Positions 1,179 to 42,912 of a stretch of 64,000 nt of DNA are shown here, piece by piece. The notes beneath the pieces were generated by a model, which saw only the letters and a program-made list of their open reading frames with translations, did not search any database and was not told the DNA's origin. Each line of letters starts with the position of its first letter. The first letter of the stretch is position 1. A program made the translations under genes and the position numbers. Source of the DNA: Candidatus Moraniibacteriota bacterium (GTDB lineage: Bacteria; Patescibacteriota; Minisyncoccia; Moranbacterales; UBA2206); NCBI GenBank assembly GCA_030679995.1, contig JAUXSK010000018.1, forward strand, positions 41,828 through 105,827. The letters are read 5' to 3'.

Positions 1179-1538
1179 TCCGAAATCCAAAAAACAAAAC
1201 GATACGATTTAGAGGATAGAACGTTAGAGTTTGGAAAGAGAATTTTGAGATTAGCAAAGGCCTTGCCAAAAAACACAATAAATTTCAAGTTAATTGATCA
1301 ATTTGTCCGTTCCGGCACTTCAATGGGAGCAAACTACCGAGAAGCTAATGAAACTGAAACCAAAAAAGATTTTAAATTTAGAATGAGAATATGCAGAAAA
1401 GAAGGTAAAGAGACCATTTATTGGCTATATTTAATAGCCGAAGCTAATCCAGAATTTGAAGAAAGAATAAAACCACTTTTACAAGAAACGACTGAAATCG
1501 TAAAAATATTCGCCGCCATTCTTGTAAAATGTGAATGA
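1176..1538 (+). CDS. Four-helix-bundle protein of the 23S rRNA intervening-sequence protein family, nested between the two arms of repeat copy R1.
   Basis: 120 aa, all-helical and Lys/Glu-rich. The FGKRILRL...IDQFVRSGTSMGANYREA...YWLYLI pattern is typical of the family. Assignment is by recall, without an HMM search. Confidence 0.7.
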   Translation: MSEIQKTKRYDLEDRTLEFGKRILRLAKALPKNTINFKLIDQFVRSGTSMGANYREANETETKKDFKFRMRICRKEGKETIYWLYLIAEANPEFEERIKPLLQETTEIVKIFAAILVKCE

Positions 1539-1602
1539 TTTTGATGATTTTGAATTTAATATTTATTTGGAATTTGTAATTTTGTATTTGTAATTTAAAC
1601 AT
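1539..1602. repeat. Right arm of the palindromic repeat (copy R1), ending in TATG, which supplies the start codon of the downstream gene.
   Basis: ATTTATTTGGAATTTGTAATTTTGTATTTGTAATTTAAACATATG is the inverted complement of the left arm and matches the 3' ends of R2 and R3. Confidence 0.7.
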
Positions 1603-2019
1603 ATGGGTTTATTCAATGTTCCCCAATTCATCGACATCGAAGACAAGATTGTCGGACCGCTGACCGCCAAGCAATTGGGCTGGATGGGGGCGGCCGGAGT
1701 GATCCTTTTGGTGGCCTGGAGCATCCTGGACCTCACGGCATTCATCATCGCCGCTATCCTCACCAGCATCATTTTCGGCAGCCTGGCATTCTACCGTCCC
1801 AACGGACAGCCATTGGTCTATTTCATCTTTTCCGCCATCTCTTTCGCCTTCCGTCCTAAAATATATATCTGGAAAAGGGTGGCTGACAAGAGCGTACTCG
1901 GATTCACTCCCGCCCAAAAGACGAAAGCTGAAAAAAATGCTAAAATAAAGACATTGGCACCCAAGGAAGTTTCGGAACGGAAGATAGAAGATATTTCACA
2001 TTTATTGGACAGTAAATAA
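1603..2019 (+). CDS. PrgI/VirB3-like small two-TM T4SS component.
   Basis: The N-terminal NVPQFIDIEDKIVGPLTAKQL resembles the PrgI-family VP..I..E.K..G.LT.RQ motif, followed by two hydrophobic helices. It is ~138 aa and sits immediately upstream of virB4. Confidence 0.55.
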   Translation: MGLFNVPQFIDIEDKIVGPLTAKQLGWMGAAGVILLVAWSILDLTAFIIAAILTSIIFGSLAFYRPNGQPLVYFIFSAISFAFRPKIYIWKRVADKSVLGFTPAQKTKAEKNAKIKTLAPKEVSERKIEDISHLLDSK

Positions 2020-37106: not shown

Positions 37107-38195
37107 TCAGATTAATTTGTTAGCGTTTGAATATTTTATGCCCAGGTGGTTGTAGGCGTGCTCGGTCACCATGCGGCCGCGCGGAGTCCTGGTCATAAAG
37201 CCGATTTGCAAGAGATAGGGTTCGTAGACATCCTCGATCGTCTTTATTTCTTCGCTGGTTGCCGCGGCGATCGTGCTCAGGCCGACCGGTCCGCCGTTGA
37301 ATTTTTCGATAATGGTGCGCAAGATGTGGCGGTCGGCCGGTTCCAACCCGATCGGGTCGACGTCGATCATTTCCAGGGCTTCCTGCGCGATGGCGCTGTC
37401 CACGAATGGGTGGTTTTTGATCTGTGAAAAGTCGCGTACGCGTTTCAAAAGCCGGTTGGCGACGCGCGGGGTTTGGCGGGCGCAACTGGCGATTTTGGCT
37501 AGTCCGGTGTCGTGGATATCCACGCCTAGGATCCGGCTGGATCTTTTGATGATATCCTTCACTTCCTCGTTTCCATAGAATTCCAACCGGTAGGTAGCGC
37601 CGAAACGGTTACGCAACGGATTGGTGAGTGATCCAAGTTTGGTCGTGGCGCCGATAAGGGTGAATTTAGGCAGATCCAACTGGATGGTGCGGGCCGAGGG
37701 GCCTTTGCCGATGATGATATCCAATTTGAAATCTTCCATCGCCGGATAGAGGATTTCTTCGATGGATTTATTGAGCCGGTGGATTTCATCGATAAATAGG
37801 ATATCGCCATCTTGCAAATTAGTCAGGATCGAACCGAAATCGCCGACGCGCTCGATGGCCGGGCCGGAAGTGGTCTTAATGTTGACGCCCATTTCTTTGG
37901 CGATGATGTTGGCCAGAGTCGTTTTGCCTAGTCCAGCCGGGCCGTATAGCAGGATGTGTTCGATAGGCTCTTTACGTTTTTTGGCGGCGCGAAGCAGGAA
38001 ATCCAGATTTTTTTTGACTTTCTCCTGGCCGATATATTCGGAAAAACTCTGGGGACGCAAGGTGTTATCCAGATTATTGTCTTCAACGGTTGCTTTCGGC
38101 TGGGTAGCGGAGGCCAGATCATTGAATTGTTCGGATGAATCGACTAACACAAGTAGTTTTAAATTTTCAATTTTAAATTTAAAATGAAATCCCAA
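37107..38195 (-). CDS. ruvB: Holliday junction helicase RuvB. Its N-terminal ~25 codons are encoded by AT-rich repeat sequence, so the true start may be further downstream.
   Basis: Walker [15 protein letters not shown], Walker [11 protein letters not shown] and sensor motifs. Confidence 0.9.
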
Positions 38196-38285
38196 ATGTT
38201 TAAATTTTTAAACATTCAGCATTTAAAATTGATTTAAAATTTCAAATTTATAAATTTAAAATTATAGGCTTTAGCCTCATTGTAG
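38150..38285. repeat. AT-rich repeat/palindrome element related to the intergenic repeat family.
   Basis: TTTTAAATTTTCAATTTTAAATTTAAAATGAAATCCCAAATGTTTAAATTTTTAAACAT... containing the perfect palindrome ATGTTTAAATTTTTAAACAT. Confidence 0.5.
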
Positions 38286-38291
38286 CATTGC

Positions 38292-38320
38292 TTGACAAAA
38301 AATAAAAGGTGTGCTAAGAT
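38292..38320 (+). promoter_or_regulatory. Near-consensus sigma70-type promoter driving the orphan plus-strand transcript.
   Basis: TTGACA (38292-38297), a 17-nt spacer, then TGcTAAGAT extended -10 (38312-38320). Confidence 0.55.
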
Positions 38321-38326
38321 GCCTAG

Positions 38327-38558
38327 TCATATGATTTTGGCTGAAAAACGCCTTTCGTATGGCTAGCAGTAAGCTGTAGGCAATTGGTGATTTCTATCTT
38401 TTGTCATCAATTTTGGGAACTTTTTATCAAGATATGGGCGGATTGGTGCAAGCTGGGCCGTGCCTCGATACTGTTCCTTCCCCGAGGGCCTAGCTCTTGG
38501 GACTTGCCTGCAGATTACTGATTGATAGAGAAAAACTCGGTTCATACCGGGTTTTTTG
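38327..38558 (+). ncRNA. Candidate ~230-nt small RNA of unknown identity, with its own promoter and intrinsic terminator and no plus-strand ORF.
   Basis: Bounded by the promoter above and a terminator ACTCGGTTCATACCGGGTTTTTTG (38534-38557). It is GC-richer than its surroundings and contains GGGCGGATTGGTGCAAGCTGGGCCGTGCCTCG...CCCCGAGGGCCTAGCTC pairing potential. It lacks the 5' GGGG / 3' CCA tmRNA signatures and the RNase P P4 motifs. Confidence 0.3.
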
Positions 38559-38577
38559 TTTGGATAAAAAAGAAAAG

Positions 38578-38612
38578 GCGGGAGCTCCAGTGTGATGGAA
38601 TTCCCGCCCGGG
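38578..38612 (-). terminator. Rho-independent terminator of the GGDEF gene.
   Basis: The minus strand reads GGGCGGGAATTCCATCACACTGGAGCTCCCGCC followed by TTTTCTTTTTT. Confidence 0.55.
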
Positions 38613-38618
38613 CAAAAG

Positions 38619-39794
38619 TTATTTCTTATGGCAAGGCCGCAACAATACCCTTATCTCATAATCAAGAGTGAGAACTCTGTTTCTGAGAAAGGAAGCGCAT
38701 TCGTCGATTTCTGAGATTTCTGATATTTCAACTAGAAAATCATCATGTGATGCGGTTATGTCGCAAGTCTGTAATAGGCCATATTTTTTAATTATCAGCC
38801 GGTACAGTTCGCTTGAAACATCGGTTCGCAGGCGGTTTATTCGCCTTGCTTCATGTAAACGGATGGCGGATTCCTGGTCCGTCGTTCCGCGTGTTATCAG
38901 CAAGGCCTGCAAATTATTCGCGGGACAGGCTGATTCCCAGAGTTTTTCCTTGAGGATTATTTTCCTGTGGGTGACTAAGTCACCGGAAATATCCTCCACC
39001 ATTCCCATCAGGGTGTCTCCCAAGGCTTTTTTCGAAAAAGCCTTGTTTTTGTCGCACGTTTGCAAGAATGAAACAAGGATATCCCAAAAAATGCATTCCC
39101 CAGCCGTAACGGACGGGGTGAAATGGAACTTTCCTGATGAGCGTTCCGCTTTTTCTAGCAGGCACTGGCCATATTCGCCAAGTCGATTATTCGTTTCCGG
39201 ATTATGGAAGTCCAAATCAGGAAAGGAAATCTTCGAGACTTCGGAAATAACCAGGTCTCTTAAGACGAGATACATCGGACAGTAGGTCGGTTCATCAATC
39301 GCGCAAGGAATTATTTCATCAACGCTGCCGGTGCTTCTTCTGACCAGCACATCGAATTCATCTCCACCTGCCCGGTCGATTTCCAGGATCAGCGAATGCT
39401 TTTCGCAAAAGTCCCGGATTGTCTGGTTATGGAGAGCTCCGGCAACCAGATCCAGCAGGGCATCACCTAATCGATGGCTGCCGACATCGTTGACCGTTTT
39501 CAGTCCATCCAGATCGAAACGGATCTTAGCGACCCGTTTCAGTCGGGTTTTGATTTCGGCTATCGGCTGGCCGCTAAAAAGAGTTAGGATAAAAATATTG
39601 CGAATCTCGTTTTTTATCCAAGCTCCGCCCTCGTGGAAGCCATGCTTGGCTGCCAACTTCTCGTAATTTGGGGGAGAACAAGTCTCCTTATCGTCATTTG
39701 GTGTCGCCACCCTACTTATCAATTCTTGTAATTCGCTTTCCATAGTCATACGTCGATTCTCCTGTCGAATTTTAAGATTGATGCTTAAGTCCAC
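38619..39794 (-). CDS. GGDEF-domain diguanylate cyclase (catalytic motif intact, no I-site) with a C-terminal extension of unknown function.
   Basis: FDLDGLKTVNDVGSHRLGDALL...RAGGDEFDVLV follows the canonical D.D..K..ND..GH..GD..L...R.GGDEF order. GGDEF lies at nt 39354-39368. Confidence 0.7.
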   Translation of the reverse strand: MDLSINLKIRQENRRMTMESELQELISRVATPNDDKETCSPPNYEKLAAKHGFHEGGAWIKNEIRNIFILTLFSGQPIAEIKTRLKRVAKIRFDLDGLKTVNDVGSHRLGDALLDLVAGALHNQTIRDFCEKHSLILEIDRAGGDEFDVLVRRSTGSVDEIIPCAIDEPTYCPMYLVLRDLVISEVSKISFPDLDFHNPETNNRLGEYGQCLLEKAERSSGKFHFTPSVTAGECIFWDILVSFLQTCDKNKAFSKKALGDTLMGMVEDISGDLVTHRKIILKEKLWESACPANNLQALLITRGTTDQESAIRLHEARRINRLRTDVSSELYRLIIKKYGLLQTCDITASHDDFLVEISEISEIDECASFLRNRVLTLDYEIRVLLRPCHKK

Positions 39795-39876
39795 CTAGTT
39801 GACAGCCAAAGCGCGGTGTCTGGTGTCCAAATAGGTGGACTTAATTTTTTTAAAGAAACTGGGTCGGTAAAGGATG

Positions 39877-42800
39877 TCACAGGTCAGTCACCCGTTCGAT
39901 TTCTTCGATGGTAGTTTCACCCTCCAAGACTTTCAATACGCCGTCTTGGGCCATCGTCAACATTCCGTTTTCCATAGCCTTGTCGGCCAATTCAGAAGTG
40001 ATGGCGCCTTGGGTAATAAGGGCTTGGATGTCTTTATCGACAATAAACACTTCACTGATGGTGGTGCGGCCTTTGTAGCCGAGGTAATTGCATTTTTCAC
40101 AGCCTTTGGGTTTGCAGATTTTTTCAATCGGCGGGATTTCCACGCCGGATTTCGGTGAAATCGTTTTGATAACCATAGTGATTTTTTCTTTTTCTTCGAG
40201 TGTCGGAATGGTTTTTTCTTTGCAGTCGCACAATTTGCGCACCAGGCGTTGTGCCATAAAAGCGTTTACGCCGGAAGCGATATCGGAAGGCGAGACGTCC
40301 ATATTGAGCATCCTCTGGACCGCTCCAGCCGCGTTGTTGGTGTGGATGGTAGAAAGGACCAAATGTCCGGTCAGCGCGGCTTGCACGGCGACTTCGGCGG
40401 TCTCGTTGTCGCGGATTTCACCGATCATCATAATGTCAGGATTCTGGCGCAAGAGCGAACGCAGGGCGGTCGGAAAAGTATAACCCTCTTTGTCGTTCAC
40501 GGGAGTTTGCAGCAGACCTTCGATTTGGTACTCGATCGGATCTTCTACGGTGATGATTTTCACTTCGGGTTTATTGAGGATATTCAAGAGACTGTAGAGG
40601 GTAGTGGTTTTGCCGGAACCGGTCGGACCGGTATTTAGGAAAACCCCGTTTGGCTTGGAAATTTCGTGCAAGATTTTTTTCTTGTTCTGTTCGCGGATGC
40701 CGAGCTTGTTGATGTCCAATTCTTGCGAAGCCTTGCTTAAAAGCCGCATTACTACGGTTTCCCCGTAGCCGCCGAGAATGATGGAGATACGCACGTCGAC
40801 CGATCTTTCCTTGACATCGGCAATCTCATCGGCGAAGCGGATTGAAAAACGGCTGTCGACGACGCCTTCGCGCACTTGGGATTTGACGCCGCTCAGGATT
40901 TTTATTTCACCGAGGATGGCCGGATATTCATTGAGCGGCAATGCCACGACGGTTTGCAGGATGCCGTCGATGCGGAACCGGAATTTCACATCGTTTCGTC
41001 CTGGCTCGATGTGGATGTCGCCGACCCCGAGCAATGAGGCGGCTGCGAAGATGATTTTGTTGATATCGGGGACTTTGGCGAGGTAGATGGCGGCTTGGAG
41101 TTTTTTGAAATCGGCGATGTTTTCTTGGGCTTTGGCAAAAGATTCCTCGTCGACCAGGATATTGCGGCCGAGCGATTGGGACATCAGCTTTTCATAGACG
41201 CCTTCCAAGAAATCACCTTCGCCCGTGACACGCTTCACTTCGTCGATGGAGGTTATGCCGCCCAAAGCTTTCAAAATTCCGTCTTGCAACATCGTGATCA
41301 TTCCGGCCTCCAGCGCGGCCACGGTCAATTCCGTTTCTCCAGCCAGATTGAGAATCAGGCTTTCCAAATCCTCATTGAGGGTGAGCACTTCAAAGATGCC
41401 GATGCGTCCCTTATAACCGAGATTATTGCATTTGGGGCAACCCTTCGGCCGGTAGAGCTTGGTGATCTCTTTGGGTACCTCGACTTTGGCTTTGGGGGAT
41501 ATGATGGATAATATTTTTTTGATGGAAGCGAGTGATTCTTTGGCTGGCACATATTCCTCCTTGCAATCGCACAATTTGCGCACTAATCTTTGGCCGATAA
41601 TCGCATTGACAGCGGGAACGATCAGCGAGGGCTTCACGCCCATCTCGATGAGGCGGGGGATGGTCCCGATGGCGTTGTTGGTATGGATGGTGGAAAGGAC
41701 CAAATGTCCGGTCAGCGCCGAGTTGACGGCGATGTCGGCTGTTTCTTCATCGCGGATTTCTCCCACTAGGATGACGTCCGGATCCTGCCTGACGATGGCG
41801 CGCAAACCGTTGGCGAAAGTGTAGCCACGGGATCTTTCAATCTGGGTCTGGGAAATGCCGGCGACTTCATATTCGATCGGATCTTCGATGGTGATGATTT
41901 TCGTTTCCGGATCGTTGAGTTTGTTGATGAAAGAATAGAGAGTGGTGGTTTTACCGGAGCCGGTCGGACCGGTCGTGAGAATCATACCGTTAGGCGCGGA
42001 AATCTGTTTTTGCAACTCCTCATAGGCCAGGCCTTGCAGTCCCAGACTTTCCACATTGACCTGGATGGAGGAGGGATCAAGAAGGCGCATAACCACACTT
42101 TCTCCGAAACTGCCTGGAATGATGGAAACGCGGATAGCGATTTTTTTAGCTTCGATGTTCACTTCGAAATTACCATCCTGGGCGATGTCGCGCAGGTTGA
42201 TTTTCATGCCCGACATCATTTTTATCCTGGAGATGATGGTTTTGAAGATATTCAGAGGCAAAAAAGCCACGTCATGCAAGACGCCGTCGATCCGGTAGCG
42301 CAGACGGAATTCTTTTTCCTGCGGTTCGATGTGGATATCGCTTGCGCCAAGTTTATAGGCGCCGCCCATGACGATATTCAGGACTTGGGTAGTCGGTAAC
42401 TCGTTAATCCGTTGTTTCAGGGTGATGAGGTCTTTCAGATATTCATCGAATTTTTCCAAATCGTCCCCGGTGAGGTTGACGCTTAGCTGGGAAAGGATGT
42501 CGGTGAAAACGATCTTTTTATATTTCTCTAGGACTTTATCCATATTATAGCGGGAAATCACGAAAATCTGCGTATCCCAACCCCTGGTTTCAGAAAGATT
42601 TTTCAAGTATCCGACAGTTTTCAATTGTATCGGATCAGGCGAGACTATCGTAGCTTTCTTGCCGATTTTCTGGATGATGGCGATATCATAGAGCCTTGCA
42701 TCTTCCTCGGATAGCAACTTCAGGCTTTCAGTGCTGATCGGGACGAGATTGGTGTCAAGATATGGCAGTCCGAGCGCCGCCGCGAAAGCTGCCGCCTGCT

Positions 42801-42912
42801 CTTCTTCGGATTGGTGGCGTAAATTGGACAGGACTTTGGCGGTGTCAGTTTCTTTTTGAGAAGCTCCGACAGTTCCCAAGGATGATGAGCGGTCCCTTAA
42901 TATTTTTATCAT
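39877..42912 (-). CDS. pilB: Covalently fused tandem GspE/PilB-family secretion ATPase with N1-N2-CTD-N2-CTD architecture.
   Basis: Two complete modules. Each has Walker A GPTGSGKTT (nt ~41944-41973 and ~40601-40633), Asp box, Walker B (DPDVILVGEIRDEETA and NPDIMMIGEIRDNETA), His box LTGHLVLSTIHTNNA and a tetracysteine CDCK...C(P/E)KCN. A GspE_N-like N1 domain lies in the first ~150 aa. Confidence 0.85.
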   Translation of the reverse strand: MIKILRDRSSSLGTVGASQKETDTAKVLSNLRHQSEEEQAAAFAAALGLPYLDTNLVPISTESLKLLSEEDARLYDIAIIQKIGKKATIVSPDPIQLKTVGYLKNLSETRGWDTQIFVISRYNMDKVLEKYKKIVFTDILSQLSVNLTGDDLEKFDEYLKDLITLKQRINELPTTQVLNIVMGGAYKLGASDIHIEPQEKEFRLRYRIDGVLHDVAFLPLNIFKTIISRIKMMSGMKINLRDIAQDGNFEVNIEAKKIAIRVSIIPGSFGESVVMRLLDPSSIQVNVESLGLQGLAYEELQKQISAPNGMILTTGPTGSGKTTTLYSFINKLNDPETKIITIEDPIEYEVAGISQTQIERSRGYTFANGLRAIVRQDPDVILVGEIRDEETADIAVNSALTGHLVLSTIHTNNAIGTIPRLIEMGVKPSLIVPAVNAIIGQRLVRKLCDCKEEYVPAKESLASIKKILSIISPKAKVEVPKEITKLYRPKGCPKCNNLGYKGRIGIFEVLTLNEDLESLILNLAGETELTVAALEAGMITMLQDGILKALGGITSIDEVKRVTGEGDFLEGVYEKLMSQSLGRNILVDEESFAKAQENIADFKKLQAAIYLAKVPDINKIIFAAASLLGVGDIHIEPGRNDVKFRFRIDGILQTVVALPLNEYPAILGEIKILSGVKSQVREGVVDSRFSIRFADEIADVKERSVDVRISIILGGYGETVVMRLLSKASQELDINKLGIREQNKKKILHEISKPNGVFLNTGPTGSGKTTTLYSLLNILNKPEVKIITVEDPIEYQIEGLLQTPVNDKEGYTFPTALRSLLRQNPDIMMIGEIRDNETAEVAVQAALTGHLVLSTIHTNNAAGAVQRMLNMDVSPSDIASGVNAFMAQRLVRKLCDCKEKTIPTLEEKEKITMVIKTISPKSGVEIPPIEKICKPKGCEKCNYLGYKGRTTISEVFIVDKDIQALITQGAITSELADKAMENGMLTMAQDGVLKVLEGETTIEEIERVTDL

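Follow-up and report, generated by a model that had tools for sequence, protein, structure and literature searches.

A structured non-coding RNA gene beside ruvB in Moranbacteria and other Parcubacteria

Orphan structured non-coding RNAs (ncRNAs) of large or medium size such as the raiA motif RNA, OLE, Bacteroidales-1 and Chloroflexi-1 are stand-alone genes with a promoter and a terminator of their own, each in a single lineage. They further combine a covarying multi-helix fold with conserved unpaired nucleotides, are non-coding and have no consistent downstream gene. Here we describe a locus that shares these properties, located on the plus strand at 38292-38561 of a 64,000-nt stretch of contig JAUXSK010000018.1 from a Candidatus Moraniibacteriota bacterium, hereafter the window. 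Unlike in these orphans, its RNA has no sequence or structure match in Rfam 15, its host belongs to the Parcubacteria of the candidate phyla radiation (CPR), and its synteny is divergent to ruvB and convergent to a pilB-like gene. The region is very probably a genuine new structured ncRNA gene: it has its own promoter and terminator, a covarying fold and strand specificity, as a stand-alone structured ncRNA has, and its RNA represents a family that has not been described previously.

Other well-studied RNAs offer partial likenesses. 6S RNA (ssrS) resembles the RNA described here in size, in its strong housekeeping promoter, in a long closing stem and terminal arm that flank a central domain and in the apparent presence of one copy per locus, but covarying hairpins here replace the open bubble of 6S RNA and no 6S model matches. 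The distal part of arm P3 (Table 1) follows the layout of domain IV of the signal recognition particle (SRP) RNA, or 4.5S RNA, with an asymmetric loop, a helix, a small internal loop, a 3-bp helix and a tetraloop. Unlike domain IV, it lacks the GGAA/AGCA motifs, its tetraloop is variable and tolerates insertions, the RNA has the extra arms P2 and P4, and no SRP model matches. With Y RNA/Ro-type and CsrB-type sequestering RNAs there would be a likeness in the proposed action only, that of a structured RNA displaying conserved loops to a protein; GGA motifs, a Ro-binding helix and a tRNA-like module are all missing.

Promoter, terminator and fold

A first-pass annotation of this DNA had proposed an orphan promoter-to-terminator unit encoding a structured small RNA (sRNA) of ~230 nt. 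The unit stands, with strong covariation support, and the predicted transcript would be ~235 nt long, from about 38325 to 38561, as judged from its sequence signals. The near-perfect sigma70 promoter of the annotation is present at 38292-38320, where TTGACA, a 17-nt spacer and TGcTAAGAT together come near to the consensus, and the same architecture was found in all 72 related loci with sufficient flank. Within the segment 36000-41000 it is the best promoter match and the sole 10-of-12 match with an extended -10 element, and the 10 weaker promoter-like sites in this segment, compared with 6.5±2.8 expected, indicate no enrichment. Since such sites are common here, the promoter match by itself is weak proof, and it is the conservation that constitutes the real evidence. 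From this near-consensus housekeeping promoter with its extended -10 element the RNA would start at about 38325 with AGUCAU, which is also the commonest leader start among the relatives.

The intrinsic terminator, likewise claimed at first pass, consists of a GC stem between an A-run and a U-run and forms a 12-bp hairpin in the minimum free energy (MFE) fold. A pattern scanner for terminators left out this hairpin, probably because A·U pairs absorb its T-run. The stem is kept by compensatory changes in close relatives (CUCGGU/ACCGGG in the window versus CCCGG/CCGGG in L153), and a hairpin with a U-run is located at most 75 nt from the RNA core in 47 of 78 relatives. The segment had also been called GC-rich, which is correct relative to the adjoining spacer of 27-30% GC and incorrect in absolute terms, the GC content being ~45%. 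The extensive internal complementarity that had been noted is reflected in an MFE of -86.8 kcal/mol, as compared to -62.9±4.3 for shuffled sequences (z = -5.57), with 0 of 200 shuffles being as stable.

For the covariation analysis across related genomes, which had been suggested as a check, we used two alignments: an unbiased set of 24 sequences collected by synteny and aligned independently with MAFFT (A3), and a set of 82 distinct sequences from metagenome loci and the synteny collection, fitted to a covariance model (A4). RNAalifold predicted 48 pairs from the 24 sequences, 31 of which showed double compensatory changes. The refined structure contains 54 pairs, and 35 of these have changed on both sides among the same sequences. 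In this structure 94.7% of the cells are paired, as opposed to 40-46% after displacement of the 3' partners by 1 to 3 columns, and the covariation score is 0.397 versus 0.08-0.11 in the displaced controls; none of 500 shuffles attained any of the observed measures. The larger set gave the same picture, with 96.0% paired cells and double changes in 34 of 53 pairs. Throughout the MAFFT alignments the helices vary by compensation while the loops are fixed, a contrast that holds over RuvB identities of 67-98%.

The RNA begins with a 5' hairpin (P0), followed by a closing helix of ~17 bp (P1) that encloses the three arms P2, P3 and P4. In 53 of 79 relatives P0 pairs the 5' AGUCAU with AUGRCU at the 3' end of the leader. 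Within the Moranbacteria-type group, the pyrimidine-rich loop of P2, UUCUAUCUUUU, is nearly invariant. In P3, an internal loop with AAGAUAU (38429-38435) facing UC (38465-38466) barely varies and has the family form AAGAYAU/UC, while the apical tetraloop GCAA (38448-38451) is exchanged among relatives for UUCG and others. Several positions hold near-universal G·U pairs (24/24, 23/24 and 22/24 in the smaller set); read from the opposite strand they would turn into C·A mismatches, and the folded strand is therefore the one transcribed from the promoter.

Table 1. Features of the RNA locus and its immediate flanks, in window coordinates
Feature	Position	Strand	Basis or remark
ruvB	37107-38150 or 38195, by start codon chosen	-	Pfam RuvB_N, AAA_lid_4, RuvB_C; divergent from the RNA promoter
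-35 hexamer TTGACA	38292-38297	+	sequence and promoter scan; TTGAC[AT] kept in 72/72 related loci
Extended -10 TGcTAAGAT (TG 38312-38313, TAAGAT 38315-38320)	38312-38320	+	TGnTAnnnT kept in relatives
Putative transcription start, at conserved 5' AGUCAU	38325-38326	+	5-6 nt past the -10
P0 5' hairpin, GUCAUAUGA/UCGUAUGGC and inner GGC/GCC stem	38326-38363	+	MFE fold
P1 closing helix, 5' strand GCAGUAAGCUGUAGGCAA	38366-38383	+	partner 38504-38521; compensatory changes in 10/16 pairs
P2 hairpin, loop UUCUAUCUUUU at 38392-38402	38384-38410	+	5/8 pairs covary; 98-99.7% of cells paired
P3 long arm: GGGAAC/GUUCCU, AUC/GAU, internal loop, distal helix, apex	38415-38478	+	covariation
P4 hairpin, YCCUAR-type loop (CCUA 38489-38492)	38481-38501	+	8/8 pairs with compensatory changes
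P1 closing helix, 3' strand UUGCCUGCAGAUUACUGA	38504-38521	+	covariation
Intrinsic terminator: A-run, stem 38536-38541/38546-38551, U-run 38552-38561	38531-38561	+	sequence and MFE fold
Terminator hairpin of the minus-strand gene	38578-38612	-	GGGCGGGAAU...UCCCGCC then UUUUCUUUUUU, read from sequence
Next gene, convergent with the RNA	38619-39794	-

Candidate tertiary features were examined and are not supported. If UAUCUU in the P2 loop paired with AAGAUA in the P3 internal loop, the resulting pseudoknot would have 6 bp in the window, but the P3 loop of relatives reads CAGACAU or CAGAUUC while the P2 loop is fixed, so that the pairs break without compensation. A pairing of 5' GCUAGC with the P4 loop CCUAGC is lost, as judged by eye, in sequences of the L022 and L025 types. 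Inspection by eye only also set aside a K-turn, an 11-nt tetraloop receptor (UAUGG/CCUAAG) and a loop-E as descriptions of the P3 internal loop, for which the strand order and the partner nucleotides misfit. A mutual-information scan of the A4 alignment, in which the invariant loops give no signal, yielded no non-nested covarying pairs except extensions of helices.

A small protein-coding gene is not supported, since there is no conserved open frame and no three-base periodicity of the substitutions. For the three codon phases the entropy is 0.737, 0.739 and 0.753, the best reading frame is open in only 34 of the 82 sequences and the RNA alignment contains 1-nt indels; the protein-like substitutions that the first-pass annotation had named as evidence against an RNA were not seen. 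Its statement that no plus-strand open reading frame (ORF) exceeds 10 codons holds for ATG starts and fails for TTG starts, from which unconserved ORFs of 45, 30 and 32 aa can be read. Public gene calls of 58 aa in L002 (2272-2448, minus strand) and 53 aa in L003 (2287-2448, minus strand) overlap the RNA promoter and the 5' half of the RNA, and are almost certainly false predictions made on top of the ncRNA gene.

Distribution across Parcubacteria

The closest RuvB homologues of the window are found in metagenome-assembled genomes of Moranbacteria and Parcubacteria, the nearest relative having a RuvB identity of 98% (P0001; locus L001). Homologues of the RNA were identified in more than 100 related loci, nearly always at the position next to ruvB, and in all Moranbacteria-like loci they are upstream of this gene. 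BLASTN searches detected the RNA, with 77-96% identity, in all relatives fetched by RuvB identity, and a GTDB species-level scan that started from RuvB found it wherever the RuvB identity of the locus was at least 67% (L014-L032). A covariance model (R1) built from the 24 synteny-collected sequences matches the window once, with 165.7 bits. A pattern scan of metagenome contigs gave at least 120 stretches, 80 of which were listed as loci, and each of the 80 loci listed contains exactly one model match (120-177 bits). A scan of a viral contig collection found 0 copies of the RNA.

The gene order is the same in all relatives fetched by RuvB identity: a pilB-like gene for a tandem T2SSE ATPase, a variable stretch, the RNA, ruvB, a 74-aa membrane peptide, a bPH_2 protein and an LTD/PKD protein, with the RNA always on the strand opposite to ruvB. 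Among the 80 metagenome loci listed, ruvB is divergent and at most 700 nt upstream in 70; of the remaining 10 loci, 7 have the RNA too near a contig end for the position of ruvB to be told. The pilB-like gene of these loci is convergent, from -1 nt (an overlap) to 3.3 kb downstream of the RNA.

Distant Parcubacteria gave weaker model matches, unchanged in position and strand, with scores of 60 bits in L029, 41 in L040, 27 in L066, 25 in L035, 24 in L069 (Nealsonbacteria), 22 in L033 and 16 in L042. In these distant homologues P1 is GC-rich with a U-run directly after it, and both the AG…GG / CCUC internal loop of P3 and a UUCCUAA-type loop on P4 are retained. The family is vertically inherited in Moranbacteria and other Parcubacteria. 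Its spread and its synteny with ruvB go beyond the first-pass annotation, as does a small same-strand ORF after the RNA in about 40% of the relatives.

Insertions are concentrated in certain parts of the RNA. The interior of P0 is variable, with an expansion of ~70 nt in one subgroup, the P3 apex accepts insertions of 17 to 118 nt, and the range for the P0 interior and the P3 apex together is 17 to 126 nt. Long hairpin insertions interrupt the RNA, on the minus strand, in L014 (~1683-1810), L015 (~1663-1790), L035 (~1600-1790) and L033 (~1780-1880), and have similar GC-rich termini (CCCGCAC…GUGCGGG, CCCCGCACC…GGUGCGGGG and CCCCGUUAGAAAC…GUUUCUAACGGGG). They are located at different sites, namely the 5' strand of P3, the P3 apex and the position of P2, and mark the parts of the RNA that tolerate insertions; in appearance the hairpins recall expansion segments or a small palindromic element that is mobile. 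In L031 (~1189-1881, minus strand), the RNA core is ~530 nt from a ruvB-proximal consensus promoter, and the long extra sequence between them could be another RNA or an insertion.

Known RNA families and possible modes of action

The Rfam scan that had been suggested at first pass was run with the 4227 covariance models of Rfam 15 and identified no known family. At gathering thresholds there were 0 matches in the whole 64-kb window (1-64000), at E ≤ 10 a 601-nt target (38100-38700) gave only weak unrelated matches, mostly over the terminator, and at E ≤ 1 nothing relevant was found in 16 related loci. These negative results cover the 6S, SRP, RNase P, tmRNA, riboswitch and ribozyme families, and ARAGORN detected no tRNA and no tmRNA in the window; the annotation had similarly recognised no hallmarks of tmRNA, RNase P RNA or SRP RNA. 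Our literature searches on ncRNA, 6S RNA, RNA motifs and ruvB in CPR, Patescibacteria and Parcubacteria retrieved no description of this RNA, no lineage-specific ncRNA described for CPR/Patescibacteria and no paper mentioning both 6S RNA and the candidate phyla radiation; the one pertinent paper deals with diverged RNase P RNAs of the CPR (PMC8172020).

A highly diverged RNase P RNA, SRP RNA or tmRNA could in principle be missed by standard models, and RNase P RNAs in circularised CPR genomes may indeed score under the Rfam thresholds and have to be refolded by hand (PMC8172020). However, those diverged RNAs kept their RNase P features and were still detectable with RF00010 at lowered thresholds (PMC8172020), whereas neither RF00010 nor RF00011 matches here at E ≤ 10 with permissive filters. 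Moreover, P4-type motifs (GGAAAGUCC, ACAGAA) are absent by eye, and the core of ~160 nt is too small for a bacterial RNase P RNA. The loop-stem-loop-tetraloop layout of distal P3 recalls SRP domain IV by eye only; no SRP model matches at E ≤ 10, the SRP motifs are not seen by eye, and a variable apical loop that takes insertions of up to 118 nt is hard to square with the SRP tetraloop. As for tmRNA or tRNA, ARAGORN finds no gene with a tRNA-like acceptor/T-arm in the window, the tmRNA models do not match at E ≤ 10, and a tRNA-like end is lacking by eye. We find a diverged universal RNA scarcely credible.

The RNA could alternatively be a functional analogue of 6S RNA, or a very divergent 6S RNA, that would bind the RNA polymerase holoenzyme and mimic promoter DNA with -10-like loops (UAUCUU, UAACUU = TAnnnT). 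A size of about 160-235 nt, the strong housekeeping-type promoter and the arrangement of closing stem, central domain and long terminal arm are in line with this proposal, as is the lack, in our search, of papers on both 6S RNA and the CPR. 6S RNA is, to our knowledge, the one widespread bacterial housekeeping RNA that often goes undetected in small or divergent genomes. Nevertheless, the Rfam 6S and 6S-Flavo models do not match the 601-nt target at E ≤ 10, the would-be central bubble is occupied by the hairpins P2 and P4 with compensatory changes in 5 of 8 and 8 of 8 pairs, and distant homologues have essentially no 5' bubble strand. A 6S RNA is for these reasons quite improbable.

The multi-helix junction with invariant internal-loop nucleotides might also suggest a catalytic RNA, such as a self-cleaving ribozyme. 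Alternatively, the RNA might belong to a mobile or defence system, in view of the variable insertion spot just downstream with its GIY-YIG, DUF559, Peptidase_M23 and GGDEF-like genes. Yet none of the ribozyme families in Rfam matches, and the viral contig collection contains no copy. The RNA is moreover a single-copy gene with vertical inheritance and with synteny kept over long distances, and no enzyme gene is conserved beside it, so that we regard this reading as very improbable.

The reading that we favour, a new stand-alone structured ncRNA gene acting as a protein-binding scaffold, has as a whole somewhat less than an even chance of being correct, and the part of it that concerns the scaffold is advanced tentatively, as a possibility rather than a probability. 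The helices covary freely, the loops are fixed and P0 and the P3 apex take insertions, a pattern that usually goes with loops serving as recognition surfaces and helices serving as spacers. The RNA would be highly expressed and act in trans as a rigid scaffold for a single conserved macromolecule. This partner, most probably a protein, would recognise three nearly invariant unpaired elements, namely the loop UUCUAUCUUUU of P2, the loop YCCUAR of P4 and the asymmetric internal loop AAGAYAU/UC of P3. It may then be the RNA part of a ribonucleoprotein (RNP) or a sequestering RNA. More speculatively, it could be a subunit or regulator of an unrecognised housekeeping RNP specific to the Parcubacteria (CPR), either as a 6S replacement or as the partner of a CPR-specific protein, that has been single-copy beside ruvB since before the split of Moranbacteria, Nealsonbacteria and related lineages.

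Several observations weigh against the scaffold. Invariant loops would be equally well accounted for by tertiary contacts or by base pairing to a conserved RNA target, and the loop invariance in the A4 alignment is partly built in since the metagenome set was gathered by a pattern requiring the P2 loop and the P3 motifs. Furthermore, P2 and its invariant loop are absent or different in the most distant homologues, so that the P2 loop cannot be a universal functional element; with P1, P3 and P4 retained, these make up the universal core and P2 is a Moranbacteria-type addition. None of the neighbouring proteins, that is RuvB, the 74-aa protein with two transmembrane (TM) segments, the bPH_2 protein and the pilB-like ATPase, has a recognisable RNA-binding domain. 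The transcript itself is predicted from signals and conservation only. Finally, the 75 nt beyond the core revealed no terminator in 31 of the 78 relatives, many of which then have a Shine-Dalgarno (SD) sequence and a same-strand small ORF, leaving room for a role as a leader in these genomes.

If the conserved loops pair with RNA, the locus might encode a trans-acting base-pairing sRNA that uses its pyrimidine-rich loops (UUCUAUCUUUU, YCCUAR and CCUC/UUCCUUCCCC) as seeds on purine-rich mRNA regions, for example near ribosome-binding sites, and thereby alters translation or stability. Its own promoter and Rho-independent terminator accord with such a role, as do conserved elements that are single-stranded, C/U-rich and displayed in hairpin loops. 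C/U-rich loops of this kind recall the seed loops of Gram-positive sRNAs such as RsaE. On the other hand, the 64-kb window contains 6 loop-complementary sites, the locus itself included, versus 2.5±1.7 expected, which is no clear enrichment. Furthermore, an 11-nt loop that is fixed over RuvB identities of 67-98% would be unusual for an mRNA seed because targets drift, and the RNA is far larger and more elaborately folded than typical base-pairing sRNAs. A base-pairing sRNA is accordingly judged unlikely.

The relatives without a detected terminator bear on another interpretation, in which the RNA regulates in cis, as the leader of a same-strand gene that was lost or displaced in the lineage of the window; such a leader would be a riboswitch or a processed 5' untranslated region (UTR). 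An ORF preceded by an SD sequence begins at most 260 nt from the RNA in 44 of the 75 loci with enough downstream sequence. In many loci such an ORF comes 25-130 nt after the RNA and often encodes a small signal-peptide or membrane-like product, and the three-way-junction core with its conserved junction and loop nucleotides is riboswitch-like. Against this, the terminator follows directly after the RNA in the window and in the 47 relatives mentioned above, and the next gene is convergent where pilB is near. The downstream ORFs are heterogeneous rather than one family, several of them probably being spurious, and the DNA downstream of the RNA varies whereas the RNA is conserved. An alternative pairing of the terminator/antiterminator type was not noticed, although no systematic search was made. 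In the window, a riboswitch or leader is rejected as the terminator is followed by a convergent gene, and among the relatives no downstream gene is consistently associated; the RNA is not the 5' UTR of any gene there, mis-called or otherwise, a case for which the first-pass annotation had allowed. We consider a leader to be improbable overall.

Gene neighbourhood and implications

The next gene downstream is on the opposite strand, as originally reported, and has a terminator of its own (Table 1). Beyond it, at 39877-42912 on the minus strand, is a gene whose 1011-aa product carries two T2SSE (PilB-type ATPase) domains in tandem on a single polypeptide, and which is kept beside the RNA across these CPR genomes. 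The DNA between the 3' end of the RNA and this pilB-like gene (38562-39876 in the window) is a variable spot. In the window it contains a GGDEF-like gene of 391 aa (a weak Pfam match with E = 4.5e-4, below the cut-off), to which a 373-aa call in L001 corresponds, and elsewhere GIY-YIG, DUF559 or Peptidase_M23 genes, or small signal-peptide or membrane ORFs. The spot is empty in many genomes, and the RNA terminator is then located 22-70 nt from the pilB stop codon.

Short tandem repeats of ~7-8 nt are present directly 3' of the RNA, before the next ORF, in L120, L156, L123, L128, L018, L019, L135, L004, L015, L102, L011, L147, L158 and L114. The repeat units differ by genome and include CAUGAAA/CAUGGAA (×4), CACUGAUU (×3-4, with the palindrome AUUUCACGUGAAAU), CGCGGAU (×3-4) and AAGUCUA (×5), and the AAGUCUA/UCUAA units resemble the UCUA loop motif of the RNA itself. 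The window holds only a vestige of these repeats, ACUGAUUGAUAG at 38517-38528. A motif, UUUUUUGACAA, is located directly upstream of the SD sequence of small ORFs that follow the RNA in L018, L019, L102, L011, L125, L110, L144 and L027; it includes TTGACA and leaves no room for a -10 element.

On the other side of the RNA, the -35 box is just 20 nt from the ruvB start codon in L005 and L009/L010, which means that the ruvB promoter has to overlap, on the other strand, either the promoter of the RNA or its 5' region. Divergent overlapping promoters could couple ruvB and the RNA in their expression. The gene for 74 aa that follows ruvB was considered as a candidate for an RNA-binding partner and discarded, its product being a two-TM membrane peptide instead.

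CPR bacteria, or Patescibacteria, make up a large share of bacterial diversity and have tiny genomes with few recognisable regulators. A new orphan RNA is unsurprising by itself; this one stands out as well supported and widespread in a major lineage that is poorly understood. Its fixed position provides a useful landmark, next to which the DNA just 3' is a hot spot for variable genes, and the covariance model can be added to annotation pipelines for CPR genomes. The RNA is conserved and single-copy, measures ~160-235 nt, has a consensus promoter and invariant loops and is available in more than 100 natural variants, all of which makes it a ready target for structural and biochemical work. Should it prove to be a true housekeeping RNP component or a substitute for 6S RNA, it would fill a gap in our understanding of how these episymbionts control core processes.

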